A stretch of DNA of 64,000 nt, taken from Candidatus Falkowbacteria bacterium. GTDB taxonomy: Bacteria; Patescibacteriota; Patescibacteriia; Patescibacteriales; UBA12075. Numbering within the stretch: position 1 is the stretch's first letter; the number at the start of each line of letters is the position of its first letter. The stretch covers positions 101,533 to 165,532 of the forward strand of contig DOSJ01000004.1 in the NCBI GenBank assembly GCA_003514005.1, written 5' to 3'. Shown in pieces: positions 7,001 through 62,905 of this stretch. The translations under genes were made by a program, and so were the position numbers. Under the pieces are notes generated by a model. The model was given only the letters and a program-made list of their open reading frames with translations, did no database searches and was not told the origin of the DNA.

Positions 7001-7158
7001 CGATCAACCAAAACGACATCCTTGTACGATTGGCGTTCTGGATGTTCACCATCAAAAGCAATATCCGGTCCAAAGGCAACGGAATATCCAAGGTCTTCCT
7101 CAAACCATTCAAGGATTGCTTCTTCTAAATCTGATTCAATGTATTTGTAGTGCTTCAT
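4054..7158 (-). CDS. hsdR: type I restriction enzyme R subunit (helicase/endonuclease)
   Basis: 1034 aa. SF2 motor motifs [11 protein letters not shown] (motif I) and [10 protein letters not shown] (DEAH), an N-terminal nuclease-type region ([16 protein letters not shown]), and an operon with hsdM/hsdS. Confidence 0.95.
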
Positions 7159-16327: not shown

Positions 16328-18025
16328 ATGGAACATGCATTAATTTACTGCCGAGTCTCAACCGAGGAACAGGCCGAGGACGGCCACCACTCCCTTGCGA
16401 CCCAGCTCAAGCTCTGCAAACGAGCGATCGAGGAAAGTAACAAATTCAAACTGATAGATGACGGTGTTTTTGAAGACCCCGGACGATCAGCCACCAACAT
16501 GAACCGCCCCGGACTGCAAGACATGCTACTTAAAATCCAAGACGACAAAACAATCAGAGCAGTATTTATTCAAGACACTGACCGACTTGCCAGAAACGCT
16601 CTTGATCACATGCAGATCAAGGCGATTATGAAAAAGCATGATGTTGAACTTTTTTCTGTCTCCCAGCCGGGCATTACCGATAGCCCCGAGGGAAACTTTA
16701 TGGACTTGGTGATTGCCGGTGTGAACCAACTCCAATCCCAAATCACTTCCAGAAAAACTCTAAAAAGTCTTGAGCAGAAATTCTGGGAGGGTTGGTGGCC
16801 GACCGGTGTGGCTGTCGGATATTTAAATGCTGGCGAACCAGACGATGAGAAAAAGAGAATTATTATCGTAGACGAGGAACGAGCCCCACTTATTCAAGAA
16901 GCCTTTAAAATGTATGTGACCGGAGATTATTCGGTCTTTGAAGTTCGCGATGCTTTATACAAAAAAGGTTTTAGAACTCACGCCGATAAACGGCTCGCTC
17001 ACAGCAAGATGATTGAGATATTAAAAAATCCTTTTTACTACGGCGAGATGAGGTGGCGAGGATTAGTTAACACCGGAAAACATAAACCGCTTATAGATAA
17101 AGATTTATGGGAACGAGTCCAACTAGTTATGGCCGAACACAATAGATATGCCTGTCGACGGCAAAAATTCAATTTCATTCTGCGAGGCCTGACCTTTTGT
17201 GCCAACTGCGGTCAAAGATACACCGCCGAACATCATCCTAAGAAAAACAAATCTTATTACCATTGCAACCGATCTGGCGATCAGATTAAATGCCAAGATA
17301 AGTATGTGGAAGTTTGGGATATAGAACAGCAAGTTGCCAACTTGTTCAAGTACATAGAATTCACTCCCAATTTTACCGACAGACTGGTGACCAAGATTGA
17401 AAAGATTTACAGCGGTCGCAAAGAAGTGATTAATAAAGATAAGAAAGCCCTGAATACTCAAAAGATGATGTTTGAAAAGAAACGGGATACAGCCGAGGAA
17501 AAACTTTTTGCCGGATTAATCACTGATGACGACTTCTCCAGAGTAAAAGTTAAAATCAAAGAACAGCTCGAGCTATTGCAAGACGAATTGTATGCCCAAG
17601 ATAAAAAACTCAATATGAGAATCGATGAACTGCAAGATATGCTCTTATTCGTCCGCAATGCTTACGAAGCCTATACCAAATCACCGGATGAAATGAAAAG
17701 ACTATTCCTTGGCCTTTACTGGGAGAGATTTGAAGTAGCCAACAAAAAAATCCAAACCGTAATACCGTCACCGATCATAAGGGGGCTGATGCAAGCCGAG
17801 GACATGGTCTTTACCAAGAAATACAAAGAAATTACCGGTCCGAGAATAATAACCGACTTGGCCGTAGAATTTACACCATTCATAGCCGGCAAATCAAAAT
17901 CCAAGATTGCCCCTAAAACGCAAAAATCCCGACAAATTGCCGAGATTCCTGCAATGATATCCAATCAACCAAACTCGGTTATATTAGATACCGTTTGGGG
18001 TGAGGTACGGGAATCGAACCCGTAA
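16328..18025 (+). CDS. large serine recombinase (integrase)
   Basis: N-terminal resolvase catalytic domain ALIYCRVSTEEQ and DRLARN, recombinase domain, Zn-ribbon CANCGQRYTAEHH...YYHCN...C, and coiled-coil. The last ~10 codons are antisense to tRNA-His. Confidence 0.9.
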   Translation: MEHALIYCRVSTEEQAEDGHHSLATQLKLCKRAIEESNKFKLIDDGVFEDPGRSATNMNRPGLQDMLLKIQDDKTIRAVFIQDTDRLARNALDHMQIKAIMKKHDVELFSVSQPGITDSPEGNFMDLVIAGVNQLQSQITSRKTLKSLEQKFWEGWWPTGVAVGYLNAGEPDDEKKRIIIVDEERAPLIQEAFKMYVTGDYSVFEVRDALYKKGFRTHADKRLAHSKMIEILKNPFYYGEMRWRGLVNTGKHKPLIDKDLWERVQLVMAEHNRYACRRQKFNFILRGLTFCANCGQRYTAEHHPKKNKSYYHCNRSGDQIKCQDKYVEVWDIEQQVANLFKYIEFTPNFTDRLVTKIEKIYSGRKEVINKDKKALNTQKMMFEKKRDTAEEKLFAGLITDDDFSRVKVKIKEQLELLQDELYAQDKKLNMRIDELQDMLLFVRNAYEAYTKSPDEMKRLFLGLYWERFEVANKKIQTVIPSPIIRGLMQAEDMVFTKKYKEITGPRIITDLAVEFTPFIAGKSKSKIAPKTQKSRQIAEIPAMISNQPNSVILDTVWGEVRESNP

Positions 18026-18071
18026 CAGGAGCGCCACAAGCTCATGTGATAACCGTTTCACCAACCTCACC
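17996..18071 (-). tRNA. tRNA-His (GTG), intact, with encoded G-1 and CCA
   Basis: Hand-folded: G-1 + GTGAGGT / TG / GTGA-AACGGTTA-TCAC / A / TGAGC-TTGTGGC-GCTCC / TGTT / ACGGG-TTCGATT-CCCGT / ACCTCAC / C / CCA. Confidence 0.9.
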
Positions 18072-19236: not shown

Positions 19237-19310
19237 TGTACCCGACAGGGTTCGAACCTGTGACCTACAGCTTAGAAGGCTGTCGCTCTATCCAGCTGAG
19301 CTACGGGTAC
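19237..19310 (-). tRNA. tRNA-Arg (TCT)
   Basis: Hand-folded: GTACCCG / TA / GCTC-AGCTGGATA-GAGC / G / ACAGC-CTTCTAA-GCTGT / AGGTC / ACAGG-TTCGAAC-CCTGT / CGGGTAC / A. Confidence 0.9.
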
Positions 19311-21842: not shown

Positions 21843-22582
21843 GTTACCCAAATAAATTCAAAAAGCGCCTTATGCATTGAATAGATATTTTCGTCTTCGA
21901 TCAAAGTACCGGTTAGATTTTTTTCTGTCATTGTGATATAGGCGATTTTGTTATCGTAAATATGAAGACTGGTTGAGAATGGGGTAATTTGCAAATTTAT
22001 CAGTTTTACATCGGTTAATTCGCTTGCGCTCGAAAAATGATTACGGGCGTAAGGCGAATCAAGGGCGAGAAGCCTTTTTTTAATACCTTTTTTGTTTCTT
22101 TTTGCCACGTATTCCTTGTTTATCTCTCTTAGATATTTATCAACCGCCTCAACATCGGCAATAGTTAGGATTTCAGTCTTTGCTGTAAGTGTGTCATTAA
22201 GAATTTTCCAAATCCCTTCCTCTCCCTCATAATACCTTACCCCCGGCTTGTTACTAAGCAAATTATAGGATGAAACCATATCTGGCAGGTAATTGTTAAA
22301 CAATTCCCTGTCTTTTTTTATTTGTCTTTCTTTTTGGTCAAAAAACTTTTCCATCTGCGCCGGGTGCCCGATGCGGAAATAGCTGATGGCGTTCGGCTTT
22401 TCTACCCGCTCAACAATATTTAAAACCACCATTTCCTCCAGATCTTTATAAACGATTGCTCTGGATTTTTTGATTTGCTTGGCAATTTCCGAGGCCTTGT
22501 CTTCTTTTTTATTGAATAAGTATTCCATTATGGCGGATTGAGTAGGGGTGAGGCCGGCTTTTTGGAAGATTTGTTTGTACAT
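21839..22582 (-). CDS. TrmB-family (winged HTH) transcriptional regulator
   Basis: The N-terminus GLTPTQSAIMEYLFNKKEDKASEIAKQIKKSRAIVYKDLEEMVVLNIVERV is a typical TrmB wHTH. 247 aa. Confidence 0.75.
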   Translation of the reverse strand: MYKQIFQKAGLTPTQSAIMEYLFNKKEDKASEIAKQIKKSRAIVYKDLEEMVVLNIVERVEKPNAISYFRIGHPAQMEKFFDQKERQIKKDRELFNNYLPDMVSSYNLLSNKPGVRYYEGEEGIWKILNDTLTAKTEILTIADVEAVDKYLREINKEYVAKRNKKGIKKRLLALDSPYARNHFSSASELTDVKLINLQITPFSTSLHIYDNKIAYITMTEKNLTGTLIEDENIYSMHKALFEFIWVT

Positions 22583-22590
22583 CTGGTTTT

Positions 22591-22675
22591 AAAAATTCTA
22601 AATTATAAGGTCTAATTTCTAATATTTTAAATCATTAATAGATTAGAAATTATAATTTAGATACTTAGAAATTAT
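22591..22675. repeat. hairpin repeat, family ttctaaattataa/gtctaatttctaa (copy 1 of 4, degenerate)
   Basis: Inverted arms aaattctaaattataaggtctaatttctaat / attagaaattataatttagatacttagaaatt. The same words occur at 27463, 48685 and 50478. Confidence 0.7.
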
Positions 22676-22737
22676 TTTTACAATCATTATCTAGAATAAT
22701 TATAGCATATCTATAAAAAATGTCAATATAAAAATTA

Positions 22738-22836
22738 GACAATATTGCATATGCAAATGCTTAATATATTGCAATATTGTCAACGTAATCACGGAAAATG
22801 ATATAAAATGCCTGGTAAAATACTTGACAATATTGC
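22738..22836. promoter_or_regulatory. three GACAATATTGC(A) operator-like boxes
   Basis: gacaatattgca 22738-22749, inverted copy tgcaatattgtc 22770-22781, and gacaatattgc 22826-22836 overlapping the -35 of the plus-strand promoter. They lie between the divergent TrmB gene and the non-coding locus. Confidence 0.5.
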
Positions 22837-22852
22837 TATTCTGTGATATACT
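22824..22852 (+). promoter_or_regulatory. near-consensus sigma70-type promoter
   Basis: TTGACA (22824-22829), 17-nt spacer ending TGa, TATACT (22847-22852). Confidence 0.6.
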
Positions 22853-22858
22853 GGTTAA

Positions 22859-23808
22859 TCAAGCTAAGAAACGGAGAATTTGTCAAATTGGTAAGAAGTT
22901 AAAAATTGCACATTAGAAAAAAAACAATATATTTCAAGAACTTATCGGCGGAGCTTTGAGTGGCGTAAATTATCGGAGAGAGAAAAGATGATTTCGTCCA
23001 AGCGAAACAGGTAAGGTTTTGGAATTACTAGCTAGAGATGCTTCTTTGGTCTCACGAGAGAAGAGAGCAAAGAAGAACTTTATCTGGTAAGGATACAGAT
23101 CATTACAATTTAATACTCTGGAGAGAGACAAGTGATTTTCGATTTTCGATTGGCGATTTTCGATTTAGTTTAACAGTGATTGGTTTCTCTTCATTAAATT
23201 AGTGAATAGAAATTGGTTGCTGTTTTTTAAAACTAAAAAATGATCAAAAATCTGAAGAGGAGAGAGATGCTTCCTTTTCTGAACTGCGGGTTTGCCCGTA
23301 GATTGGATAGGGAATGATAACAAAAATTATTCAGGGAAAGAAAATCATGTCAATCGTCCCAAAAGAATAATACAATATTCTCTTCAAATTTTTGTTCTTT
23401 TTAAAAAAATTAACTGCTTTGGGAAATTTCGCCAAAATGAAGTCTCGACCATGCTTGGAGAGTTCTTCCCCCGAAAAAATGCTTTGCATTCTCGGGGTAA
23501 AATTGGAGAGAGTAGATTTCTTGAAGTAATTATAACTAATCAAGTTCGACCGCGTAAAGATGCTGTGCATCCGCGCGGAAATGTGCCGAGCCCTGTGGGA
23601 TTTGTCTGGTTTCGTTTCGAACCGGAACTGATAAGTTCTGCAATTTTCAAGTAAGTGAGTGCATCTGTCCCGCGGAAACGCGAGGCAGGCCGCTGAAAGA
23701 AGGCTACGGACGATCGATATCTTATCAAAGAGATCGACTGCGCGTGAAGGATTGAACCCCCTTCGCGTTCAGAAATTTCTCTGGTAGAGAAAGAATTTTT
23801 TTAAACAA
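22859..23808 (+). ncRNA. ~950-nt promoter-to-terminator locus without a credible long ORF (micro-ORFs plus structured GC-rich 3' half); class unknown
   Basis: Bounded by the promoter at 22824 and the stem-loop/T-run at 23783-23808. Contains four GGAGAGAG boxes, covarying hairpins, a CGCG-GAAA-CGCG tetraloop hairpin (23671-23682) and a local GC content well above its surroundings. Confidence 0.4.
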
Positions 23809-23834
23809 AAAAACCTCCGTATTAGGCGGAGGTT
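23801..23834 (-). terminator. intrinsic terminator of the 88-aa gene
   Basis: aacctccg-tattagg-cggaggtt hairpin followed on the minus strand by a T-run (forward aaacaaaaaaa). Confidence 0.7.
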
Positions 23835-23848
23835 AAATAGTAAGGTAT

Positions 23849-24115
23849 TTATTTTTTGATGTTAACAGTATAAGGATTTAAACCAAGATGTACTTCGATA
23901 TTGGAAATGCGTTGTTCAAAGCGATCGTGGGCAGCCATGTTTGAAACGAAAGAATGTTCGATATTATCTAATTTATGCATGACCGCATCAACAGCCGACA
24001 AGACCGAGTCAAATTTTTGATTTAATTCATCCCTGGTTGCAAAATCTTTTAAGTCATCTTTTAATGCTATTTTATTGAATTGTTCTGGAGTAAGTGACAT
24101 ATATTTAATAATCAT
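23849..24115 (-). CDS. small coiled-coil protein (88 aa), hypothetical
   Basis: Track ORF with heptad-like composition and its own terminator. The start may be the internal MSLTPEQF. Confidence 0.5.
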   Translation of the reverse strand: MIIKYMSLTPEQFNKIALKDDLKDFATRDELNQKFDSVLSAVDAVMHKLDNIEHSFVSNMAAHDRFEQRISNIEVHLGLNPYTVNIKK

Positions 24116-24260
24116 TTTTTATAAATATAGTATAGCAACCAAACAATTATATTTCAATAGCGATTTTTATTAGGAATAATCAAATCAGTTGGAATATTTT
24201 TGCGGGGAAAGATTTTGCCCATAAAAATGTCCTAACTATTTTGGAGAGAGAAACTAGTCG

Positions 24261-24289
24261 TTGGATGGACTTCGACAATTGAATATACT
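24261..24289 (+). promoter_or_regulatory. putative promoter TTGGAT-N17-TATACT
   Basis: ttggat 24261-24266 and tatact 24284-24289. The same -10 hexamer occurs in the promoters at 22847 and 25228. Confidence 0.4.
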
Positions 24290-24299
24290 TATTGTTGAC

Positions 24300-24357
24300 T
24301 TTTAATCACCAATCAAAATTGTTTTTATATCAATGTAGTTTTGATTGGTGATTAAAA
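24300..24357 (+). promoter_or_regulatory. perfect 19-bp inverted repeat in the leader of the small-protein operon
   Basis: ttttaatcaccaatcaaaa (24300-24318) / ttttgattggtgattaaaa (24339-24357), with a 20-nt loop. Confidence 0.6.
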
Positions 24358-24406
24358 AACAAATAAGACCACGCTTCCGAGGGTTGATATCGGAGAGGGA
24401 GATGAA

Positions 24407-24616
24407 ATGAGAAAAAGTGATTTGAACTTTTCAGGAAATGAAACTAACGTCGTATCTGGAAAGGCGGTGAAAATCGTCAGCGATAAAGAAGGTAAATTTT
24501 TTGCTGTCGCAATATTGGGCGGCAGAGAATATTATCATCTTGTTGAAAAAAAAGATGGATGGGATGAAAGATTTTTACCTTCCCGGTATTTCGCTGAGGG
24601 AGGAATCAAAATTTAA
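24407..24616 (+). CDS. hypothetical small protein (69 aa)
   Basis: Track ORF preceded by GGAGAGGGAG 7 nt upstream of the ATG. Confidence 0.5.
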   Translation: MRKSDLNFSGNETNVVSGKAVKIVSDKEGKFFAVAILGGREYYHLVEKKDGWDERFLPSRYFAEGGIKI

Positions 24617-26513: not shown

Positions 26514-26903
26514 ATGTTAGCCAAAGAAGCAAAACAGAGGATTATTAACAAGTTTAAGATCCACAAGAACGACACCGGTTCATCCCAGGTGCAGATTGCT
26601 ATTTTAACAGCGGAAATCGAGGAATTATCAGAACACTTGAAGATCCACAAGCACGATCATTCATCACGTCGAGGGTTACTTAAAAAAGTTGGAGAAAGAC
26701 GCCGTTTGTTGAAATATTTGCAAAAAGAAGACGAGAATTCATTCATGGATATTGCGAAAAAACTTAAGCTTAAAATCGCTAAAAAAATGATTGAAGAAGA
26801 AGATGAAAAGAAACGGATTGAGGCCGAGATGCTTGCAAATGAACAATTAAAATTAAAAGACAGTGAGGAAGAGGAAGAAGTGGAAGAGGTTAAGGAGGAT
26901 TAA
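26514..26903 (+). CDS. rpsO: 30S ribosomal protein S15 with ~40-aa acidic C-terminal extension
   Basis: NDTGSSQVQIAILTAEIEELSEHLKIHKHDHSSRRGLLKKVGERRRLLKYL aligns with E. coli S15. The tail is ...EEEDEKKRIEAEM...DSEEEEEVEEVKED. Confidence 0.95.
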   Translation: MLAKEAKQRIINKFKIHKNDTGSSQVQIAILTAEIEELSEHLKIHKHDHSSRRGLLKKVGERRRLLKYLQKEDENSFMDIAKKLKLKIAKKMIEEEDEKKRIEAEMLANEQLKLKDSEEEEEVEEVKED

Positions 26904-26906
26904 GAA

Positions 26907-26937
26907 GTGTCGAATGACGAATGTCGAGTGTCGAATA
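26907..26937. repeat. gtcgaat-word repeat (intergenic copy)
   Basis: gtgtcgaatgacgaatgtcgagtgtcgaata. The same words occur inside yebC at 31718-31756. Confidence 0.7.
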
Positions 26938-26958
26938 TAAAATAATTAAGAATATTCA

Positions 26959-27453: not shown

Positions 27454-27462
27454 TAATGCAAA

Positions 27463-27531
27463 AAATTTCTAAATTATAATGTCTAATTTCTAAATTCTAT
27501 TTTAGAAATTAGACATTATAATTTAGAAATT
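27463..27531. repeat. hairpin repeat, ttctaaattataatgtctaatttctaa family (copy 2; ~31-bp perfect stem)
   Basis: aaatttctaaattataatgtctaatttctaaa / tttagaaattagacattataatttagaaatt. Confidence 0.85.
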
Positions 27532-27617
27532 ATTTTATTAAAATATGGCTTGGCCATGAGATAAATAGTGCTGTGAGTAAGCTCATAGTCCTGTAATTTC
27601 ATTGCCAAGCAGAACTA

Positions 27618-27691
27618 AGTTCAAAGTTGGAAAGTTTAAAGTTATAAAGTTATTAATATGCTTTATGCTTTATAACTTTAAACTTTGTACT
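27618..27691. repeat. hairpin repeat, ataaagtt/aactttat word family (copy 1)
   Basis: agttcaaagttggaaagtttaaagttataaagttatt / atgctttataactttaaactttgtact, immediately upstream of the pnp start. Confidence 0.8.
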
Positions 27692-31054: not shown

Positions 31055-31306
31055 AAGGATGAGTTTATTTTTAAAATATTAAATAGTTCGTTAACATATT
31101 CTGTGAGCATTTCACGTCTGTGCCGGCCGAAAATATGTCGGAGAACCAATAAAGATATTGTATCATTTTTTTGAAAAAATAGAAATAATTTCAATATTTT
31201 CTCTTGATTTTTTATATGACTTATGGTAATTTTATAAAAGATAAGTAAAGACGACAAAATCAGAATATGCTGGATGTCGTCTATTTTATATATTAAGAAT
31301 AAACCT

Positions 31307-32020
31307 ATGTCAGGACATTCAAAATGGGCGACAATTAAACGAAAAAAGGAGGTTACGGACTCTAAACGCGGAGCCGTATTTACAAAATTGGGAAATATTA
31401 TCAGTATCGCGGCCAGGGAAAAAGGCGGCGATATTGAGACGAATTTTTCTTTGCGCATGGCAGTTGAAAAAGCCAAAGCCGCGAATATGCCAAAAGAAAA
31501 TATCGAGCGCGCGATCAAGCGCGGTACGGGCGAAGGTGGCGGAGAGCAGATTGTTGAATTGATTTATGAAGGAATCGGACCGGCTAATTCGCAGTTTATT
31601 GTAAAAGTTTTGACTGATAATAAAAACCGCAGCGCCGCGTCCGTGCGCCATGCTTTTACAAAATATGGCGGATCGCTTGGGACTGTGATGTGGAATTTTG
31701 AGCAGAAAGGAGTGATTCGAGTGTCGAGTGTCGAATTTCGAATTTCGAATGACGAAGATGAGCTAGAGTTGATTGAAGCAGGCGCTGACGATATTTTAAA
31801 AGAAGAGGAGGGAGTAACTATTTATACAAAGCCGGAGAATTTGCAGAAGGTTAAGAAGTTTTTGGATGAGAAAAAAATTAATACAGAATCTGCAGAAATT
31901 GAGTATATTGCGAAAGACGAGGTTGAGATTAGCGGGGAAGATAAAGAAAAGATTGAAAAATTTATTGATGAGTTGGATGGCATTGAAGACGTTTCGGATT
32001 ATTATAATAATGTATTGTGA
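31307..32020 (+). CDS. yebC: YebC/PmpR family DNA-binding transcriptional regulator
   Basis: MSGHSKWATIKRKKEVTDSKRGAVFTKL is the canonical N-terminus. The track start 31274 adds 11 non-homologous codons. Confidence 0.9.
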   Translation: MSGHSKWATIKRKKEVTDSKRGAVFTKLGNIISIAAREKGGDIETNFSLRMAVEKAKAANMPKENIERAIKRGTGEGGGEQIVELIYEGIGPANSQFIVKVLTDNKNRSAASVRHAFTKYGGSLGTVMWNFEQKGVIRVSSVEFRISNDEDELELIEAGADDILKEEEGVTIYTKPENLQKVKKFLDEKKINTESAEIEYIAKDEVEISGEDKEKIEKFIDELDGIEDVSDYYNNVL

Positions 32021-32128: not shown

Positions 32129-32617
32129 ATGAATAACATAATTTTAGGCATTGATCCCGGTATTGCCGATACTGGTTGGGGCGTAATCCAGGTAGAAAAA
32201 AATGGCAGTTTAAAATGCCTTGGTTATGGCACGATAAAGACCAAGGCAAATACGGATTTGTTCAAGAGATTGGAAATAATAAATTTAGAGCTTAAAACAT
32301 TAATCGATAAATATAAGCCGGATTTGGCGGCGGTGGAGGAATTGTTTTTTTGCAATAACGCCAAAACGGCGCTCGTCGTCGGTCAAGCGCGCGGAGTCGT
32401 GCTTTTGACAATCCGTCAAAGCGAGGTATCGTTTGTCGAATTTACGCCTCTGCAGGTAAAACAGGCAGTATCGACATATGGTCGCGCCAGTAAATTACAG
32501 ATTCAGAAAATGGTAAAATTAATTTTGAATCTAAAAGAACTTCCGCGTCCAGACGACGCGGCAGATGCGCTCGCGATTGCGATATGCGCGGTTAATAGTT
32601 TTAAGTATAAAGTATAA
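32129..32617 (+). CDS. ruvC: crossover junction endodeoxyribonuclease RuvC
   Basis: ILGIDPGIADTGWGVI, AVEELFF and DAADALAIAIC are RuvC catalytic motifs. Confidence 0.92.
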   Translation: MNNIILGIDPGIADTGWGVIQVEKNGSLKCLGYGTIKTKANTDLFKRLEIINLELKTLIDKYKPDLAAVEELFFCNNAKTALVVGQARGVVLLTIRQSEVSFVEFTPLQVKQAVSTYGRASKLQIQKMVKLILNLKELPRPDDAADALAIAICAVNSFKYKV

Positions 32618-32709
32618 AGTTAAAAGTTATAAAGTTATTATTAAAAAAGTTTAAGCTTTATAACTTTTAACTTAATACTTTATAACTTTACACTTTATAA
32701 CTTTAAACT
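32598..32709. repeat. hairpin repeat, ataaagtt/aactttat word family (copy 2); left arm overlaps the ruvC 3' end
   Basis: agttttaagtataaagtataaagttaaaagttataaagttatt / aagtttaagctttataacttttaacttaatactttataactttacactttataactttaaact. Confidence 0.8.
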
Positions 32710-34181: not shown

Positions 34182-34255
34182 AAGACGAGAAGTAAGAAGT
34201 TAGAAGTAAGAAGGATTTAAAATTTTTCTTACTTCTAACTTTTTACTTCTAACTT
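34181..34255. repeat. hairpin/word repeat agaagtaag
   Basis: gaagacgagaagtaagaagttagaagtaagaagg / ttcttacttctaactttttacttctaactt. Confidence 0.8.
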
Positions 34256-35553: not shown

Positions 35554-36573
35554 ATGAACAAAATTCTTGATCTATTTGATGAAGAAAAGGTAAAAGTATT
35601 GTTTAAAGAAAAAATATTGCCGTTTTATCCGAATTTTTGTGATATTAAAAAAATTGATATCAAGGCGTATAAAAAACAGATTTGGGAAACTACTTATCAT
35701 GTTGTCTTGGAATTTAATACCAGTTTCAAAACCAAAAAAGGCAAGATTAAAAAAATGCCGATTGTCTGTTCGGCGCATTCAAACGAGCCAAGAGAAAATT
35801 TTTATATTGCCTTGTCTTATTTGTGGGAGCATAATTTTTCCGGACCTTTCTTTTCGGTTCCGCATCCGCTTTTTTATTCCGATTATTATAGGGGCGTATT
35901 TTATCGTGGTGTAGCCGGCAACACGCTTTATCATCACATAAAGAAAAATAACCGCTCCGAAATTGAAGCAATCATTCCACTTACGGCAAAATGGTTTGCA
36001 AAACTTCACAATCTTTCGGTAAATGGTACGCCGAATTTTAATTTGGAAAATAGCCGAATTGAAACGGCGCTACCCGGCATAAAGCAGATATTGGCGCGTG
36101 TTCAAGTGGTTTATCCGGAGTATTATGATATTTATCACAAAATATACAAGAAATTGGACGAAAATGAGAAAAAATTTTTTGCATCAACGAAAAAAAAATG
36201 GTTGGTGCACGGTGATGCGCATCCGGAAAATATAATCAGCATGAGCAAGCGAAAAATTGCCGCGATTGATTTTGCCGATCTTTGTCTTTCGGACTACGCG
36301 CGCGATATCGGATCATTTACGCAGCAGCTAGATTATATGTGCGGACGAAAAATCGGTGATAGTGATTTTACAAAAAAAATAAAAGAATTATTTTTAAAAA
36401 TTTATTTTGAAAATTTTAAAAATGGACAACAAGCAGGCATTGATGATCGGATAAAAAATTATTATAATTGGACTGCCATGCGCACAGCAACGTATTTTTT
36501 GACCAGATACAATCCGGATCCGAGCCGAGCCGAGCCATTGATTGAGGCGGTTGCTCATGATTTAAGATTTTAG
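35554..36573 (+). CDS. APH/choline-kinase-fold phosphotransferase
   Basis: LVHGDAHPENII (HGDxxxxN catalytic loop) and IDFAD (DFG-equivalent). Confidence 0.7.
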   Translation: MNKILDLFDEEKVKVLFKEKILPFYPNFCDIKKIDIKAYKKQIWETTYHVVLEFNTSFKTKKGKIKKMPIVCSAHSNEPRENFYIALSYLWEHNFSGPFFSVPHPLFYSDYYRGVFYRGVAGNTLYHHIKKNNRSEIEAIIPLTAKWFAKLHNLSVNGTPNFNLENSRIETALPGIKQILARVQVVYPEYYDIYHKIYKKLDENEKKFFASTKKKWLVHGDAHPENIISMSKRKIAAIDFADLCLSDYARDIGSFTQQLDYMCGRKIGDSDFTKKIKELFLKIYFENFKNGQQAGIDDRIKNYYNWTAMRTATYFLTRYNPDPSRAEPLIEAVAHDLRF

Positions 36574-36630
36574 ATTTTTGATTTATGATTTTAAATTAAA
36601 TCCTAAATCAAAAATCCTAAATCATAAATT
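36560..36630. repeat. hairpin/word repeat gattt(t/a)tga / tcataaatc
   Basis: tttaagattttagatttttgatttatgatttta / aaatcctaaatcaaaaatcctaaatcataaatt. The left arm overlaps the stop of the kinase gene. Confidence 0.8.
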
Positions 36631-36638
36631 ATATTAGT

Positions 36639-40248: not shown

Positions 40249-40422
40249 ATTAGGGAATAGGGATGGGAAATTAGGTACTTAGGTACTTAGGGCATAGGAG
40301 TTGGAAATTTAAGATTTATATAAAAAAATAAACTCAATTATATTTGAGTTTATTTTTTTAGATAAAATGATGATACCATACCCCCTATGCCCTAAGTACC
40401 TAAGTACCTAATTCCCTTATTA
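40249..40422. repeat. aggtacttagg-family long inverted repeat clamping a bidirectional terminator; right arm overlaps the trmD stop
   Basis: Left arm ttagggaatagggatgggaaattaggtacttaggtacttagggcatagg and right arm ccccctatgccctaagtacctaagtacctaattcccttatt. They enclose aaaaaaataaactcaa-ttatat-ttgagtttattttttt (40322-40360). Confidence 0.85.
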
Positions 40423-41111
40423 CTCCGTCTCCATTTCTCAATCTCCGCATGATTGCCAGATAACAAAACCTCCGGCACCTTATGTTCATGGCTATTGCTA
40501 TCAATAAAAACCTCCGGTCTTGTGTACTGAGGATATTCGAGCTCGCCCGGAATAGAATGCGATTCGTCTTGCGCGCTTTGTTCGTTGCCGAGTACGCCGG
40601 GCAATAGTCGCGTGATTGAATCAACCAATGCCATTGCGCCGATTTCACCGCCGGTCAAAACATAATCGCCGATTGAGATTTCTTCGTCAATGAATTCCGT
40701 TATTCTTTCATCTACGCCCTCATAGCGGCCGCAGACTAGAGTGATGTTTTCTAAGTTCGCGTATTCCTTTGCTTTTTGTTGATTCCATTTTTGGCCTTTG
40801 GCAGATAATAAAATAATTTTTGTATTAGGTATTAAGTATTTAGTATTGTGCAATTCAGGCTGTATATTATTGCTTAATACTTGATACTTAATACTTGATA
40901 CTGTTTTGTATAAAATATCGACTTTCATAACCATTCCAGCGCCGCCGCCGTATGGTGTGTCATCGACCGTTTTATGTTTGTCCGTTGTATAGTCACGCAG
41001 ATTGATAATATTTATTTTTATATTCCCTTGTTCTTGCGCGCGCTTAAGAATGCTCTCGTTGAAATAAGAGTTGAAAATTTCGGGGAAGATTGTGATTATG
41101 TTAAAAGTCAT
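40392..41111 (-). CDS. trmD: tRNA (guanine37-N1)-methyltransferase
   Basis: TIFPEIF, DDTPYGGGAGMVM, VCGRYEGVDERI, IGDYVLTGGE and LLSGNHAEIEKWR. Start taken at MTFNIITIFPE. The track start 41126 lies inside the MITE terminal repeat. Confidence 0.92.
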   Translation of the reverse strand: MTFNIITIFPEIFNSYFNESILKRAQEQGNIKINIINLRDYTTDKHKTVDDTPYGGGAGMVMKVDILYKTVSSIKYQVLSNNIQPELHNTKYLIPNTKIILLSAKGQKWNQQKAKEYANLENITLVCGRYEGVDERITEFIDEEISIGDYVLTGGEIGAMALVDSITRLLPGVLGNEQSAQDESHSIPGELEYPQYTRPEVFIDSNSHEHKVPEVLLSGNHAEIEKWRRSNKGIRYLGT

Positions 41112-41120
41112 ATATGCATC

Positions 41121-41255
41121 TGTCATTCCCGCGAAGGCGGGAATCTTGGTTTAAAAATAATAAAATATTTTAATTTTTTGAAGGTTGTAAAATCATTTCA
41201 AGAAAATAAATTCGGTGATTTGTTTACCGAGATTCCCGCTTTCGCGGGAATGACA
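41121..41255. mobile_element. MITE-like element, copy 1 (135 bp) with 26-bp hairpin-containing terminal inverted repeats
   Basis: tgtcattcccgcgaaggcgggaatct ... agattcccgctttcgcgggaatgaca. No ORF. Lies between khpA and trmD. Confidence 0.65.
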
Positions 41256-47523: not shown

Positions 47524-47628
47524 ATTAGGGTATAGGTACTTAGGTAATTAGGTTTTTTAAAACGTCTTGATAATACATCAAGACGTTTTTTGTTTTACAC
47601 CCCTTATTCCCTAAGTACCTATTTTCCT
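47524..47628. repeat. aggtacttagg-family inverted repeat clamping a terminator hairpin
   Basis: attagggtataggtacttaggtaattagg / caccccttattccctaagtacctattttcc, around aaaacgtcttga-taataca-tcaagacgtttttt (47558-47592). Confidence 0.75.
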
Positions 47629-48684: not shown

Positions 48685-48763
48685 AATGTCTAATTTCTAA
48701 ATTATAATTACTAAAAAAGCATTAATAAAAAATTTAGTTATTATAATTTAGAAATTAGAAATT
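48685..48763. repeat. hairpin repeat, ttctaaattataa family (copy 3), upstream of the pilB-like gene
   Basis: aatgtctaatttctaaattataattactaaa / tttagttattataatttagaaattagaaattt. Confidence 0.8.
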
Positions 48764-48772
48764 TAGAGATTT

Positions 48773-50476
48773 ATGTCCGATATCCAATCAATTGAAGATT
48801 TGATCGCTTCCTCAAAGGGAGGCGGTTTTGATGATGAGAGCGCTTTGGGAAAATTTCAGGCAAAGCAAAAAGAGATCAATGTGAAAGAAGTAGAAAGATT
48901 AACTGAACAGAACGCGGTAAATTTGGGCGTGTCTTATATAAGTCTTTTTGGTTTTCCGATTAGTCCAGAGGCCCTGTCTCTGATCACCGAGCAAGACGCG
49001 CGCCAGTTTAATGTTGTTTGTTTTTTTTATGACGGCCAAAAAATCCGTTTAGGCGCGCTTGAACCGCATAGCGAGGCAGTAGTAAACAAACTCGAAGAGC
49101 TTTGCGCAACCTTTTTCTGCGAAGGCGAAACTTATTTGATATCCAAAAATAGTTTGGAATACGCGATAAGGCTGTATAACTCGATTCCAAAGGTTAGAGT
49201 AATTCCGCGCGGCGTAGAATTAACAGAAGATGATTTGAATAAATTCAGTGAAAAATTTTCCAGTTTTGCGGATTTGCAAAAAGAGATCAATCAGGCAAAA
49301 GTAACCGATATCGTAACCATGGTTATGGCGGCATCTATCAAGCTGGACGCTTCCGATATTCATATCGAAGCAGAAGAAGACGGCATAAAAGTGCGTTTTC
49401 GCGTTGACGGCGTTTTGCATGACGCTTCGGTAATCAGTAAAGATTTATGGAAAAAGATAATTTCACGCCTTAAAGTTATCGCCAAAGTAAAGATAAATAT
49501 TGCCGATAAGCCGCAAGACGGGCGCATGTCTATTATTACCGCGCATGATCGGATTGATATTCGCGTTTCTTTTTTGCCGACCAATTTCGGCGAAAGTGTG
49601 GTTATGCGTATTTTGAAAGCCAGCTCAGTCGGCTTGGCTTTTAATGATCTGGGCATCCGTGATCGCGCGTTTGAACAACTAAGGCGCGAAGTCGAGCGTC
49701 CGAACGGCATGATTATCACAACCGGTCCGACCGGTTCAGGGAAAACCACTACCTTGTATGCGATTTTAAAGAAATTAAATAATCAAGAAACAAAAATAAT
49801 CACGATCGAGGATCCGATTGAGTATCAGCTGGAAGGCGTTAATCAATCGCAGATTAGCGAGAAATACACTTTTGCTCAAGGTCTGCGCTCTATCGTGCGC
49901 CAGGATCCGGATATTATTATGGTTGGCGAAATTCGCGATTTGGAAACCGCCGAGATTGCAATCCAGGCTTCTTTGACCGGGCACCTGGTATTGTCCACTA
50001 TCCATACAAACGATGCCGCTGGCACTGTGCCGCGTTTCATATCCATGGGAACAAAGCCTTTTCTTTTGGCACCGGCTTTGAACGCGATGATCGGTCAGCG
50101 TCTGGTCCGCCGTATTTGTGAAAAATGCAAAGTTGTCGACGAATTGGATGAAGAAAAAAGAAAAAGAGCTTTGGATTATATCAAGGAAATTCCCGCGGCT
50201 GAGCGGGGCGAATTGGATTTTGACAAAATCGTATTTTATAAAGGCGCCGGCTGCGAGGCTTGCCAAGGCATAGGCTACAAGGGTCGGATCGGCATATATG
50301 AGATTGTTGTGGTTGACGAAGATATGGAAAAACTGATCTTGTCCGGAGCAGTTAATGAGTATGATATGCGCGCCGCGGCTGCGAAAAAAGGCACGCTTTC
50401 AATGGCACAAGACGGAATGCTCAAAGTTTTGGACGGAATAACTTCGGTTGAGGAAGTGTTTAGAGTTGCGGAGTAA
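48773..50476 (+). CDS. type II/IV secretion / type IV pilus assembly ATPase (GspE/PilB family)
   Basis: GPTGSGKTTT, IMVGEIRD, GHLVLSTIHTNDA, and the tetracysteine CEKC...CEAC. Confidence 0.92.
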   Translation: MSDIQSIEDLIASSKGGGFDDESALGKFQAKQKEINVKEVERLTEQNAVNLGVSYISLFGFPISPEALSLITEQDARQFNVVCFFYDGQKIRLGALEPHSEAVVNKLEELCATFFCEGETYLISKNSLEYAIRLYNSIPKVRVIPRGVELTEDDLNKFSEKFSSFADLQKEINQAKVTDIVTMVMAASIKLDASDIHIEAEEDGIKVRFRVDGVLHDASVISKDLWKKIISRLKVIAKVKINIADKPQDGRMSIITAHDRIDIRVSFLPTNFGESVVMRILKASSVGLAFNDLGIRDRAFEQLRREVERPNGMIITTGPTGSGKTTTLYAILKKLNNQETKIITIEDPIEYQLEGVNQSQISEKYTFAQGLRSIVRQDPDIIMVGEIRDLETAEIAIQASLTGHLVLSTIHTNDAAGTVPRFISMGTKPFLLAPALNAMIGQRLVRRICEKCKVVDELDEEKRKRALDYIKEIPAAERGELDFDKIVFYKGAGCEACQGIGYKGRIGIYEIVVVDEDMEKLILSGAVNEYDMRAAAAKKGTLSMAQDGMLKVLDGITSVEEVFRVAE

Positions 50477-50477
50477 A

Positions 50478-50549
50478 AAATTTCTAAATTATAATGTCTA
50501 ATTCCTAAACAATAAAATTTAGAAATTAAACATTATAATTTAGAAATTT
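50478..50549. repeat. hairpin repeat, ttctaaattataa family (copy 4), downstream of the pilB-like gene
   Basis: aaatttctaaattataatgtctaattcctaaa / atttagaaattaaacattataatttagaaattt. Confidence 0.85.
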
Positions 50550-50614
50550 TATATTTTAGGTATAAATATTAAGTATCACATGTATTATAAAAATATTGCA
50601 TGTAACGCAAAACT

Positions 50615-51184
50615 ATGATTAACAAGATTTTCATTCAAAAACTAAAGAAAGAACATGAGGAGAGCAATAACGAGAGAAGACAGATAATCAGTTTGGCAAA
50701 TATCGTTTTGCACGATTCCAAACGGGTGATATTTTCCTTGCATCGTGGCGATATGACTAAGGCCGAAGAAAGTTTAGTGGAGATTGAAAAAATATTAATG
50801 AAACTTGAAAAAAACTTTGGTTATGAACGCGTTTATTCCGAAGGCGCGTACAAAGCGGCGGTTGAAGAGTATGCCGAAGCCAAGACTTTGCATATGGTAA
50901 TTAACGGGAAAAAGATTGATAAATTCAGTGGCATCAAGCTGGATTACGAAACATATTTGGGCGGAATCTGCGACCTGACAGGCGAGCTTGTCCGCCGCGC
51001 AACAAACGAAGCCGCAAGCGGAAATCGAGATGAAGTAACGCGCGTAAAAAAAATTATCAACGATATCATGGCTGAACTAATCGAATTCAATATGTCCGGT
51101 TATCTACGAACCAAGTATGATCAAGCGCGCGGCAATCTGCGCAAGATAGAACAGATGGATTACGATTTGAAAATAAGAGGATAG
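50615..51184 (+). CDS. translin-family-like protein (tentative)
   Basis: All-helical 189-aa protein. YLGGICDLTGELVRRA resembles the translin/TRAX Y..G..D..GEL.R motif (from memory). Confidence 0.5.
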   Translation: MINKIFIQKLKKEHEESNNERRQIISLANIVLHDSKRVIFSLHRGDMTKAEESLVEIEKILMKLEKNFGYERVYSEGAYKAAVEEYAEAKTLHMVINGKKIDKFSGIKLDYETYLGGICDLTGELVRRATNEAASGNRDEVTRVKKIINDIMAELIEFNMSGYLRTKYDQARGNLRKIEQMDYDLKIRG

Positions 51185-51273
51185 ATTAGGGCGTAGGTAC
51201 TTAGGGAATAGGGGGATTTAAATTCTAATGCGATTATTAATAATCCTAAGTACCTAAGTACCCAAGTACCTAA
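51184..51273. repeat. aggtacttagg-family inverted repeat
   Basis: gattagggcgtaggtacttagggaataggggga / aatcctaagtacctaagtacccaagtacctaa. Confidence 0.75.
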
Positions 51274-60232: not shown

Positions 60233-62905
60233 ATGACAAAAGAAATGCCAAAGGCTTATGAGCCGGGCTTGTATGAGGATGATATTTATAAACAGTGGGA
60301 AGAATCCGGAGTTTTTCAGCCGGAAAATTTGGAAAATACTAGTGGGACGTATTGCAATGTTTTGCCGCCGCCGAATGCGAATGGTGAATTGCATTTGGGG
60401 CATGTTTCCGGATATGTGGCTATGGATTTGATGGGGCGCTATCAACGGATGCTTGGTAAAAAAACCTTGCTTTTGCCGGGCAAAGACCATGCCGGAATCC
60501 AGACCCAGGTCGTTTATGAAAAGAAAATAAAAAAAGAAAGAAATATTTCACGTCACAACCTGGGGCGCGAAAAGTTTTATAATGAAATTTATGATTTTTG
60601 CATTGATCGCTCGGCCTATATGCGAACGCAGGAAAAAAAGATTGGCTTGTCCGCGGATTGGAGTCGAGAGAAATTTACCATGGATCCCAAAATCGTTAAT
60701 AATGTCCTCGACACTTTTGTAAAAATGTATAACGAGGTTGATGAAGACGGGAACAGGATGATCTATCGCGGTGAACGGATTATCAATTGGTGTCCAAGAT
60801 GCGCGAGTGCTTTGGCAGATGTTGAGGTTGAACATGAAGAACAAAAAGCAAAATTATTCTATTTTAAATATGATAAAAATTTTCCAATAACAATAGCAAC
60901 TACTCGTCCGGAAACAAAACTGGGCGATACTGCGATTGCGGTTAATCCAAAAGATGAAAGATACAAGGAATATATTGGCAAGACATTTCAAGCGAATTTT
61001 TGCGGGATTGATTTGAATATCAAGATTATCACAGACCATAATATTGATTTGTCTTTTGGCGCTGGTGCACTTGGTGTTACTCCCGGGCATTCTGCAATTG
61101 ATTGGCAGATGGCACAGGTGAATGACCTAGAAATAATCAAAGTAATTGGCGAAGATGCAAATATCAGGCCTGGTTTTGGCGAATATTCTGGCAAGAGCGT
61201 TCTCGAGGCGCGTGAAATGATCGTTGCAAAACTAAAAGAACAAGGTTTGATTGAAAAAGAAGAAGAGTTTGATAATAATCTTTCAGTCTGTGAACGTTGT
61301 AAAACCGCTATTGAACCATTGGTTTCAGAGCAATGGTTTGTGAATGTTGACCACAAGAATTTTTCCTTGAAAAAAGAAGCGCGGAAAGTTATTGAAAACG
61401 GAGAAATAAAAATTTATCCAGAAAGATATAAAGACATTATGCTTTCTTGGATTGACAATGTTCATGACTGGTGCATTTCGCGCCAGATTTGGTGGGGACC
61501 AAGGATACCGGCGTGGTATCGGGAAATTTTCGATTTACGATTGCCGAATGCCGATTTGGATGATAATAAATCGAAAATCGAAAATCGGAAATCGGAAATT
61601 TATGTCGGTATCGAAAAACCAGACGGCGAAGGATGGATGCAGGATTCTGATACATTTGATACTTGGTTTTCATCCGGGCAGTGGGCTTATAATACGCTTG
61701 GGTTTCCGGAGGGAAATGATTATAAAGAGTTTTATCCGAGCGACACCATGATAATGGGACGGGATATTTTGCCGTTTTGGGCGTTTCGGATGATTATTTT
61801 GAGCATATATCGTACAAAGCAGATTCCGTTTAAAAATTTGTATTTTACCGGGTTGATTCGCGATGGACAAGGAAAGAAGATGTCAAAGTCAAAAGGGAAT
61901 GGCATTGAACCGCTTGAGATGATCGAAAAATTTGGAACCGATGCTGTGCGATTATCTATGATGATCGGGGCGACACCGGGGAATGATATGAATCTGAGCG
62001 AGGAAAAGATCGCGGGGTTTCGGAATTTGGTGAATAAGCTTTGGAATGTGGCGAGATTTGCGATTTCCGATTTGCGATTTCCGATTGTTGAATTAAATCA
62101 AGATATGCTTACTGTTTCTGATAGATATATTTTAGAAAAAATGAAATTTTTAATTAGAGAGGTAAGTGGTGATTTAGAAGAATATCGATTTTCTCAGGCA
62201 GGTGAGAAACTTCGCGAATTTACATGGAATGATTTGGCGGATTGGTATATTGAGGCTAGTAAGTTTGCTGTAAGCGATGGGAAAGACTTTGTTTTGATAA
62301 AGATTTTAACTGATTTATTAAAACTATGGCATCCGTTTATTCCTTTTGTTACCGAAGCGATTTGGCAAGAACTTGATTCTGATAAAAAATTAATTGTGTC
62401 GCGTTGGCCGCTTGCTTTGGATTATGAAGTTTATAAAACAAAGCAAGAAGATATTGATAATTTTGAGATAATAAAAAATATTATAATTGCGATTCGCAAT
62501 GCGCGTTCGGAAAATAAGGTGGAGCCGGCAAGGAAGGTTAAAGCGCTTATTGTTGCTGGTGAATATTTTGATTTGATAAATGATAATGAAGCTTTGCTAA
62601 AGGGGATGAGGACAGGGGTAGAGAAGTTAGAAGTTGTAAGTAAGAAGTTAGAAGAAAAAGATGAAAATGAAACTATTAAAATAGTTGTGGGAGAAATAAT
62701 AATATATTTATTTGGAGCGATAGACAAAGAAAAAGAAGCGGAGCGGATTAAAAAAGAAAAGGCGAATTTGGAAAAACAGATTGAAGTTTTGCGTGTAAAG
62801 CTTGGTAATAAAGATTTTGTGGAACGAGCGCCAGAGGCTATTGTAAAAACTGAACAAGAAAGACTTTTAAAAATGGAGAGTGAGTTGGTGAAATTGGGAG
62901 AATAA
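60233..62905 (+). CDS. valS: valine--tRNA ligase
   Basis: PPPNANGELHLGH (HIGH), KMSKSKGN (KMSKS), CISRQIWWGPRIPAWY, and a C-terminal coiled-coil. Confidence 0.97.
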   Translation: MTKEMPKAYEPGLYEDDIYKQWEESGVFQPENLENTSGTYCNVLPPPNANGELHLGHVSGYVAMDLMGRYQRMLGKKTLLLPGKDHAGIQTQVVYEKKIKKERNISRHNLGREKFYNEIYDFCIDRSAYMRTQEKKIGLSADWSREKFTMDPKIVNNVLDTFVKMYNEVDEDGNRMIYRGERIINWCPRCASALADVEVEHEEQKAKLFYFKYDKNFPITIATTRPETKLGDTAIAVNPKDERYKEYIGKTFQANFCGIDLNIKIITDHNIDLSFGAGALGVTPGHSAIDWQMAQVNDLEIIKVIGEDANIRPGFGEYSGKSVLEAREMIVAKLKEQGLIEKEEEFDNNLSVCERCKTAIEPLVSEQWFVNVDHKNFSLKKEARKVIENGEIKIYPERYKDIMLSWIDNVHDWCISRQIWWGPRIPAWYREIFDLRLPNADLDDNKSKIENRKSEIYVGIEKPDGEGWMQDSDTFDTWFSSGQWAYNTLGFPEGNDYKEFYPSDTMIMGRDILPFWAFRMIILSIYRTKQIPFKNLYFTGLIRDGQGKKMSKSKGNGIEPLEMIEKFGTDAVRLSMMIGATPGNDMNLSEEKIAGFRNLVNKLWNVARFAISDLRFPIVELNQDMLTVSDRYILEKMKFLIREVSGDLEEYRFSQAGEKLREFTWNDLADWYIEASKFAVSDGKDFVLIKILTDLLKLWHPFIPFVTEAIWQELDSDKKLIVSRWPLALDYEVYKTKQEDIDNFEIIKNIIIAIRNARSENKVEPARKVKALIVAGEYFDLINDNEALLKGMRTGVEKLEVVSKKLEEKDENETIKIVVGEIIIYLFGAIDKEKEAERIKKEKANLEKQIEVLRVKLGNKDFVERAPEAIVKTEQERLLKMESELVKLGE

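Follow-up and report, generated by a model that had tools for sequence, protein, structure and literature searches.

The valS gene of a Candidatus Falkowbacteria bacterium, located on contig DOSJ01000004.1, carries an in-frame element of 79 nt that is probably a heptanucleotide tandem array of the STRR-like kind, lodged in a hotspot loop of valyl-tRNA synthetase (ValRS), joined by a local inverted copy and tolerated as a disordered passenger. Position numbers refer throughout to the window, i.e., the 64-kb stretch of DNA that was analysed and to which sampling of the genome was limited. The host gene is an intact open reading frame (ORF) of 890 aa on the plus strand (60233-62905). Its product is 100% identical to the NCBI entry for Valine-tRNA ligase of Candidatus Falkowbacteria bacterium GW2011_GWC2_38_22, of the Patescibacteria or candidate phyla radiation (CPR), contains the Pfam domains tRNA-synt_1, Anticodon_1 and Val_tRNA-synt_C, and matches Thermus ValRS (1GAX).

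The original prediction, made from the letters of the DNA, had described an imperfect inverted repeat placed in frame inside valS, with the same words recurring elsewhere in the window, and these descriptions were borne out. The quoted strings are present as two arms of 34 nt each, 79% complementary and separated by a 10-nt gap. The translation, ...WWGPRIPAWY-REIFDLRLPNADLDDNKSKIENRKSEI-YVG..., places the element between the WWG(P/H)RIPAWY box and the YVG segment, and the words recur both at a second position within valS and in an intergenic array over which no ORF of at least 100 aa runs (Table 1). A feature absent from that prediction is the 7-nt periodicity of the two arms, each of which is a tandem run of some 4 to 4.6 heptamers, with (ATTTNCG)n standing opposite (AAATCGR)n. 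Tandem Repeats Finder (TRF) reported the right arm at 61568-61599 (period 7, 4.6 copies, 96% matches); it gave no report for the left arm, which was picked up by a separate period-7 scan. The RNA fold of 61520-61604 reached -27.5 kcal/mol vs -16.9 +/- 2.8 in dinucleotide shuffles (n=200; z = -3.74), and none of the 200 shuffles matched its energy; a somewhat longer stretch, 61515-61610, gave z = -3.47. The longest uninterrupted helix of this hairpin is 12 bp, and 2x2 internal loops follow at 7-nt spacing. Furthermore, all 13 contigs with this ValRS protein encode an identical sequence, and its 90% cluster holds identical full-length sequences only. The identity across the 13 contigs indicates that the element is not a hypermutable phase-variation tract or a rapidly switching contingency locus.

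Period-7 arrays are abundant across the window. A fixed detector found 13 of them in the 64 kb against 0.05 expected from Markov simulations, and each of the other periods within 4-16 yielded 0-4 arrays. Likewise, the pattern CGATTTNCGATTTNCGATT, allowing at most 3 mismatches, occurred 20 times vs 1.05 expected. At the looser cut-off used for density comparisons (16 of 21 matches), the window holds 26 arrays per 100 kb, close-relative loci about 20, more distant Patescibacteria about 5, and the valS loci of unrelated bacterial phyla that served as a negative control (n=61, among the matches listed) 1.6, with periods 6 and 9 dominating there. These counts bear on an alternative without any repeat process, in which the segment would be low-complexity sequence that arose by chance or a loop of ordinary ancestral origin. 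The AT-rich composition of the window (~37% G+C) would be in keeping with it, as would the variation of loops at this position in many class I synthetases. However, the excess of pattern matches and period-7 arrays, the failure of every shuffle to fold as well, and the finding of this periodicity at the corresponding site in independently assembled DNA leave this alternative scarcely credible.

Comparison with orthologues locates the element at a site that is repeatedly occupied. The segment that runs between the Y of the WWGPRIPxWY box and the DTFDTW box was scorable in 102 of the 120 best homologues. It spans 21-22 residues in 33 of the 102 Patescibacteria orthologues vs 44 in the present protein, the insert being missing from those 33, and 24-227 residues in the remaining 69, where it mostly consists of non-homologous, 7-aa-periodic K/N/S/Q/E peptides. 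The short spacing was established against Patescibacteria orthologues and Thermus ValRS (1GAX), not against E. coli. A homologous segment of the same length in all orthologues, which would have marked an ancestral loop, is clearly not what the alignment contains, and among close relatives the insert is non-homologous and variable in length (Table 1). In the DNA of nine relatives, arrays of 4 to ~20 units occupy exactly this codon position in eight, and their words differ. No inverted arm was found at site 1 in the DNA of these nine, the inverted form occurring in this genome only. Like the right arm here, the arrays of three relatives (L004, L006 and L007) lie directly against the IYVG strand, and the L004 and L006 words GTCGGAA and GTCGAAA resemble the ATCGGAA and ATCGAAA of the window. 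On these grounds the right arm is read as a resident array, probably shared with the relatives, and the left arm as a probable lineage-specific inverted copy.

Site 1 is one of five in-frame arrays in housekeeping genes of the window, of which three lie in valS, one in trmD and one in yebC (Table 1). The second valS array (TRF 62055-62086, 4.6 copies) belongs to the same word family as site 1 and is 90% complementary over 31 nt to the site-1 right arm, which pairs better with it than with its own left arm (79%). Arrays at this second site are also present in relatives L002, L004, L005 and L010, and the third valS array recurs in orthologue L001 (6245-6286). The hairpin in trmD, a gene assigned by Pfam tRNA_m1G_MT, folds with z = -6.6. 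In addition, relative L008 carries at 4230-4323 an in-frame hairpin, (GAGTCCG)4/(CTGGACT)4, with 28-nt arms of 89% complementarity, within its PolyA_pol/CCA-adding enzyme gene. A 7-nt repeat passes through all three reading frames. The CGATTTN/AAATCGA word has no stop codon in any frame of either strand, so that both orientations are translatable, and in valS site 3 and both trmD arms a variant unit stands precisely where a pure array would create a stop codon. Moreover, the coding hairpins are weaker (79% complementarity in valS and 82% in trmD) than the intergenic ones (86-97%). Stop avoidance and weakened coding hairpins are signatures of selective filtering, not of function. Repeats of this class thus occupy both coding and intergenic DNA of the window, with ~14 intergenic elements abutting stop or start codons vs 5 in-frame coding elements by our own count in this densely coding DNA.

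Table 1. Heptamer arrays and hairpins of the window, and the corresponding site-1 inserts and arrays of relatives.
Feature	Position (window)	Strand	Repeat unit, peptide or remark
valS site 1, left arm	61524-61557	+	degenerate array ATTTTCG ATTTACG ATTGCCG AATGCCG ATTT; encodes EIFDLRLPNADL
valS site 1, hairpin loop	61558-61567	+	GGATGATAAT
valS site 1, right arm	61568-61601	+	(AAATCGA)2(AAATCGG)2AAATTT; encodes KSKIENRKSEI
valS site 2	62052-62088	+	(GATTTGC GATTTCC)x2.3, in frame; FAISDLRFPI; variable loop after helix ...KLWNVARF
valS site 3	62622-62654	+	(AGAAGTT)x4.7, in frame; KLEVVSKKLEE
trmD hairpin, in frame	40822-40901 (gene 40392-41126)	-	arms 40822-40854/40869-40901, 82% complementary; encodes SSIKYQVLSNNIQPELHNTKYLIPNT
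yebC/TACO1 direct array, in frame	31714-31758 (gene 31274-32020)	+	GTGTCGA/ATTTCGA; encodes IRVSSVEFRISNDE
Unpaired intergenic array	23134-23166	+	(GATTTTC)x4.7, site-1 word
glgA-GH57 spacer hairpin	34186-34255		(AGAAGTA)n/(TACTTCT)n, valS site-3 word; z = -9.1
ruvC-glgA spacer hairpin	32597-32709		(TAAAGTT)n; word also at 27617-27690 upstream of pnp
Hairpin at APH-family gene stop	36555-36633		(GATTTWA)n/(TWAAATC)n; overlaps the stop, ends 6 nt before next start; z = -7.9
Family-A palindrome	27460-27535		35-nt arms, 97% complementary, 7-periodic; begins 7 nt past NYN-domain gene stop; z = -13.4
Relative P0002, site 1 (84% identity)			insert HESNELITNKTNHESE
Relative P0003, site 1 (83% identity)			insert GGQHATHNMQQEIGNTQHAARNMQQ...
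Relative P0004, site 1 (76% identity)			insert (GECRVSS)n
Relative P0005, site 1 (75% identity)			insert RKSEVGSRISD
Relative P0008, site 1 (65% identity)			insert SRKSKVESQK
L001 DNA, site 1			degenerate ACGAAT array
L002 DNA, site 1			(GCAACAT), ~9 units
L003 DNA, site 1			(GNCGAGT), ~20 units
L004 DNA, site 1			(AGTCGGA)4
L005 DNA, site 1			no array; 6-residue remnant
L006 DNA, site 1			(GAAAGTC)4
L007 DNA, site 1			(AAAGTYN)5
L008 DNA, site 1			(AGGTCGAC), period ~8 rather than 7
L011 DNA, site 1			(AACAATT)4

Rickettsia palindromic elements (RPEs; RPE-1 to RPE-8) are discrete palindromic units of ~100-150 bp; each family has a consensus, and no 7-nt period is known within them. Ogata and colleagues (2000, 2002) are reported to have found them between genes and in frame in essential genes, the extra peptide being tolerated on the protein surface. 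An RPE-like process had been proposed for this genome, and part of that proposal stood. The valS element is palindromic and hairpin-forming, keeps the frame of a functional gene, is an extra segment when set against many orthologues, and encodes a predicted surface peptide; repeats of the same class have invaded other housekeeping genes in frame and also occupy intergenic DNA. The outcome is thus similar to that of RPEs. The part that found no support is the discrete palindromic mobile element. The valS element is 79 nt long, its copies share only a 7-nt word at variable copy number, relatives carry direct arrays at the same site, the same loop is hit in most lineages, and the host belongs to the Patescibacteria, not to Rickettsia. 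Unlike an RPE, it is not a unit of 100-150 bp whose dispersed copies in the window align from end to end.

A mobile unit could nevertheless be conceived more broadly, as a discrete RPE-like, REP-like or MITE-like (miniature inverted-repeat transposable element) palindrome that transposed as a whole into valS and was tolerated in frame. Dispersed palindromes with a full-length consensus do exist here. Family A has near-identical copies at 50474-50553, 48685-48763 and 22572-22686 besides the one in Table 1, making four in 64 kb of a palindrome of ~75 nt with arms AAAAAATTTCTAAATTATAATGTCTAATTTCTAAA of 92-97% complementarity, differing loops, and exact 29-mer matches at 27466, 27501, 50481 and 50518; three of the four begin within a few nt of a stop codon, and the 22572 copy lies upstream of a minus-strand gene. 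Heptamer words are also shared by unrelated loci, and by different genes, within a single genome, and an inverted pair of the valS word family is present in unrelated metagenome contigs (L112, L125, L139 and L147). Against such an origin, the window contains no second full-length valS element, the best match being 72% over 43 nt, to valS site 2. The direct arrays at the exact codon position in eight of nine relatives imply that the site already bore repeats, and these nine show no clean empty site of the MITE type, more distant relatives having the short baseline. Furthermore, the arms differ in homogeneity (96% by TRF on the right, unreported on the left), which would not be expected had they arrived together. 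When the flanks of the valS element and of the family-A copies were inspected by eye, with no dedicated search made, no target-site duplication was noticed. Among the Pfam-scanned ORFs of the window there is no transposase, no gene of the REP-associated tyrosine transposase (RAYT) kind and none of the IS200-IS605 type, the only recombinase being a large serine recombinase in an array-free island. Transposition of a discrete unit into valS is accordingly judged quite unlikely.

Family A itself is a REP-like dispersed palindrome. Repetitive extragenic palindromes and the mosaic elements that contain them (REP/BIME) in enterobacteria and pseudomonads are short intergenic palindromes between co-directional genes, proposed as mRNA 3' stabilisers and tied to RAYT. 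REPs are not known to be built of tandem heptamers and are essentially excluded from coding DNA. Family A resembles them in being dispersed, with conserved stems and variable loops, whereas the arrays of the window differ from them in being built of heptamers, in having coding copies and in the absence of a RAYT gene noted above.

The distribution of words within and between genomes bears on how arrays spread. GCAACAT recurs in L002 and L009, both from a single sample, at the first two valS sites, in trmD, in an intergenic hairpin and in one gene more; the window uses CGATTTN at valS site 1, valS site 2 and 23134; and in L003, valS shares GNCGART with an intergenic array of 139 nt. At orthologous sites, by contrast, genomes that are only 15-25% diverged at the protein level use unrelated words. 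Sharing within a genome together with difference at orthologous sites requires exchange between loci, whether by conversion, template switching or transposition. Independent drift in situ was considered as a source of this pattern and rejected, for it cannot yield both. Exchange between loci is the part of the RPE-like idea that survives.

The word itself is widespread outside the group. At least 120 metagenome contigs (median G+C 56%) contain an exact 20-mer, (AAATCGA)2.9, which in many cases is closely followed by an ATG. Contigs L090-L169 carry (GAAAATC)4-5 arrays, mostly of 27 or 34 nt, that stand abruptly within GC-rich DNA (median 56% G+C) from numerous unrelated environmental organisms. 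An ATG often follows directly, and in 8 of 80 the array has an inverted partner, as in the valS hairpin. The GC3-phase coding test gave a weak signal in 42 of 46 of the metagenome arrays, and their lengths are mostly not multiples of 3; they are probably intergenic. That 52 of the 80 lie in a stop-free stretch was discarded as an artefact, because the word is itself stop-free. The notion that AAATCGA is special, or a sign of a conserved recognition factor, was likewise dropped after viral contigs gave 15 matches vs 4 and 47 for controls of the same composition.

Structural prediction gives the setting of the insert within ValRS. An AlphaFold2 model built on a 65-sequence alignment (mean predicted local distance difference test score (pLDDT) 88.9; predicted template modelling score 0.83) has residues 433-452 as its sole segment with pLDDT <50. 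This segment is without secondary structure and is flanked by strands 427-431 and 454-458, so that in the model the insert is at the tip of a beta-hairpin, between ...IPAWY-R and EIYVG.... Mapping the insert on a structure, as had been suggested, thus places it in a predicted disordered surface loop. The aligned stretch of Thermus ValRS (1GAX) holds a CxxC...CxxC knuckle, and some Patescibacteria have a similar Cys-rich segment or a whole His_Phos_1 domain at this loop. The loop is structurally permissive, being elsewhere empty or filled by a zinc knuckle or an inserted domain. Domains of 130-200 aa were observed at site 1 in P0034, P0051, P0082, P0087, P0088, P0091, P0104, P0108 and P0113, and in L008 at 11255-11389. 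They are His_Phos_1 in several homologues and other domains in the rest, and several are preceded by array-like peptides, e.g. KQVDKSTGRQVDRQKSKIE, KKSKIKNLKSKF and RKQENKKTK.

The possibility that the element is functional has also to be weighed, either as an mRNA hairpin that regulates valS translation or decay, or as a lysine-rich loop that aids tRNA binding, in both cases under selection. The valS hairpin is more stable than its shuffled controls, and 69 of 102 relatives have an insert of some kind in this loop, many of the inserts being basic. In TrmD, 93 scorable Patescibacteria orthologues (homologues P0123-P0242) have 25-74 residues in the loop that separates GGGxGMxM from LSAKG. The arm peptides SSIKYQVL / NTKYLIPNT are kept in many orthologues of 62-100% identity while the intervening loop varies, which could reflect selection on a nucleic-acid hairpin; other TrmD orthologues carry different heptamer-derived peptides, e.g. 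NTQHATHNM, IKSQI...NSKFKI and (NLQPTTY)x6. At valS site 1, however, word, length (6 to ~50 extra residues), orientation and hairpin capacity are all unconserved, with the inverted pair found here only. The insert is wholly missing in 33 relatives, the same point holds a Zn knuckle or a 130-200 aa domain in other lineages, the peptide composition follows from A-rich stop-free heptamers, and the loop is predicted to be disordered. Selected function at valS site 1 is therefore considered doubtful to a high degree.

Several bacterial systems are built of similar units. Heptameric simple sequence repeats (SSRs) are over-represented in many bacteria, mainly in intergenic DNA near stop or start codons (Rehm et al. 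2015, PMC4692102). The GGGAATC repeats of Xanthomonas and the GGGGAYT repeats of Nostoc PCC 7120 are dispersed, lie mostly <=50 bp from ORF ends, and are reported as under-represented in coding DNA. About four units are preferred, 70-75 convergent inverted pairs occur per Xanthomonas genome, and length and sequence differ between close relatives at one locus; polymerase slippage has been proposed for their origin, and G-quadruplex formation has been offered for the four-unit preference (PMC4692102). The STRR heptanucleotides of Calothrix belong to the same literature (Mazel 1990 and Mrazek 2007, as cited in PMC4692102). In Geobacter metallireducens, multicopy elements consist of four or five tandem heptanucleotides (GGACCGG; MTYCTGA), with a GC-rich single consensus and 49 BLAST-alignable copies, and have been interpreted as regulatory RNA or binding sites (PMC2700814).

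The arrays of the window share with the Xanthomonas, Nostoc and STRR heptamers the 7-nt unit, the preference for ~4-5 units, dispersal near gene ends, convergent inverted pairs and locus variation between relatives, and one of their units, GGAAATC, is a single base apart from the Xanthomonas GGGAATC. Unlike those of Xanthomonas and Nostoc, the units here are AT-rich and lack G-tracts (AAATCGR, TAAAGTT, AGAAGTA, AATTTCT), so the G-quadruplex explanation of unit preference cannot apply to them. Many words coexist in this genome, in-frame arrays recur in essential genes, and the host is of the Patescibacteria (CPR). With the Geobacter elements the window shares dispersal and four tandem heptamers; that report included no comparison of orthologous sites and no mapping to protein loops, both of which were made here. 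The general features of heptanucleotide arrays are found in the present case, namely at least three head-to-tail units, a period-7 excess with dispersal, a mostly intergenic location near gene ends and variation between relatives. Among known kinds, the heptanucleotide tandem repeat of the STRR, Xanthomonas GGGAATC or Geobacter type comes closest, and the RPE does not. Inverted pairs of heptameric repeats, and copies of such repeats within genes, have been described before in Xanthomonas, Nostoc and Geobacter. For Patescibacteria or CPR, searches of the literature turned up no account of heptamer repeats, and matches to the repeat word itself came from primer lists only.

The 79-nt element is thus best explained as an in-frame member of a genome-wide class of heptanucleotide arrays, an inverted pair that can fold into an imperfect hairpin. 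An array of the (R)TCGRAA type may have been resident in the loop of an ancestor common to the close relatives, with the right arm descending from it. Array copy number would then have changed by replication slippage, and words would have been replaced as the arrays within a genome exchanged sequence by ectopic conversion or template switching; such exchange would give one genome the same word at several loci, and different words at orthologous sites across genomes. The inverted left arm would have been added in this lineage, most simply by strand-switch or fold-back copying, or alternatively by copying from the same-word array at valS site 2. Selection may have acted as a filter only, admitting lengths that are a multiple of 3, sequences with no stop in three frames, and a weakened mRNA hairpin. 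The encoded segment of 23-27 residues would be a disordered passenger loop with no role in aminoacylation.

Several points weigh against this explanation. Slippage, conversion and strand-switching are deduced from patterns, and no such event has been caught between near-identical genomes that differ here. Word sharing and the four near-identical family-A palindromes fit an active transposition of small elements equally well. The persistence of arrays at this loop over a wide phylogenetic range could mean that they confer a benefit, e.g. as a flexible basic loop, and the low pLDDT may come in part from gapped alignment columns and not from true disorder. Finally, the evidence on this genome comes from a single stretch of 64 kb. 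A more far-reaching reading, unlikely on present evidence, is that an unknown active process writes and spreads genome-specific heptamer arrays in Falkowbacteria-like Patescibacteria, through hairpin- or repeat-directed copying, transposition or efficient conversion between arrays. This process would seed permissive loops (ValRS sites 1-3, TrmD, YebC, CCA-adding enzyme), where the arrays would then become landing pads for larger insertions. That arrays might serve domain insertion in this way is suggested by whole domains, His_Phos_1 among them, at ValRS site 1, flanked by array-derived peptides. If true, the array-writing process would drive the evolution of protein loops and domain insertions generally across the CPR.

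Read as an STRR-like array with a local inverted copy, the valS element adds to an over-represented and little understood class of bacterial repeats. As an AT-rich case that likewise favours ~4-5 units and inverted pairing, it argues against the G-quadruplex explanation for Xanthomonas and Nostoc. Arrays have lodged repeatedly in frame in essential genes, in the same disordered loops, across a phylum-level group, with clear signs of filtering, and the use of the same word at several loci and of different words at orthologous sites points to inter-locus exchange. In practical terms, 7-aa-periodic K/N/S/Q/E inserts in Patescibacteria proteins should be regarded as repeat-derived, and neither as functional motifs nor as homologous alignment columns. 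The phylum-wide recurrence at the ValRS and TrmD loops, together with the mechanism of spread, adds to the interest of these arrays.

Outside genes, most arrays form facing inverted pairs with differing words that fill intergenic spacers. The words of these pairs are TAAAGTT, AGAAGTA, GATTTWA, GTATTAA, AATTTCT/AAATTAT/AATGTCT and the 8-mer CCTAAGTA. The gene run at 26.5-41.7 kb, which encodes S15, an NYN-domain protein, PNPase, PGI, YebC, RuvC, GlgA, GH57, an APH-family kinase, a PHP protein, a glycosyltransferase, GlgA, TrmD and KhpA, contains 11 hairpin-forming pairs and several unpaired arrays in its spacers; nearly every spacer is occupied, the hairpin reaching from a few nt past one stop to within a few nt of the start that follows. 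With stems of 20-31 bp, these intergenic hairpins pair almost perfectly, and their z values run from -5.5 to -13.4. A role as intrinsic terminators was considered and rejected, since they have no T-runs and a consensus scan flagged 34196-34242 only. Arrays of the 8-mer CCTAAGTA/TAGGTACT (40266-40416 and 47528-47626) form an outer stem around a separate, canonical intrinsic terminator hairpin, a layout that recurs downstream of trmD in relative L009 (983-1140); an unpaired copy of the 8-mer lies at 51245-51273. The intergenic hairpins would probably exert their effect on RNA, stabilising transcripts within operons or serving in their processing. Rfam at gathering threshold reported two tRNAs over the window and nothing else.

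Further observations concern the neighbourhood of the arrays. The ribosomal protein S15 gene (26514-26903) encodes 129 aa, of which residues 7-86 form the Pfam domain; the C-terminal extension of ~40 aa contains short GAAGAGGAA-type repeats, and a heptamer array (26906-26938) lies directly 3' of the gene. Nearly 2 kb at 22600-24500 contain no convincing ORF and no Pfam or Rfam match, and hold GAGAGAG-rich motifs together with the unpaired (GATTTTC) array. Translin binds single-stranded repeat sequences in eukaryotes. A Translin-family gene at 50615-51184 (Pfam E = 2e-21) has repeat hairpins on both flanks, and a link between this gene and the arrays is pure speculation. The island at 1-22000 carries a type I restriction-modification system (hsdR 4054-7158, hsdS 8759-9928, hsdM 10270-11832), AAA ATPases, a D12 adenine methylase, the large serine recombinase (16328-18025) and tRNA genes at 17999-18070 and 19237-19310; it is nearly without period-7 arrays, which is consistent with recent acquisition. 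Cumulative GC skew turns at ~13-14 kb, where gene orientation flips.

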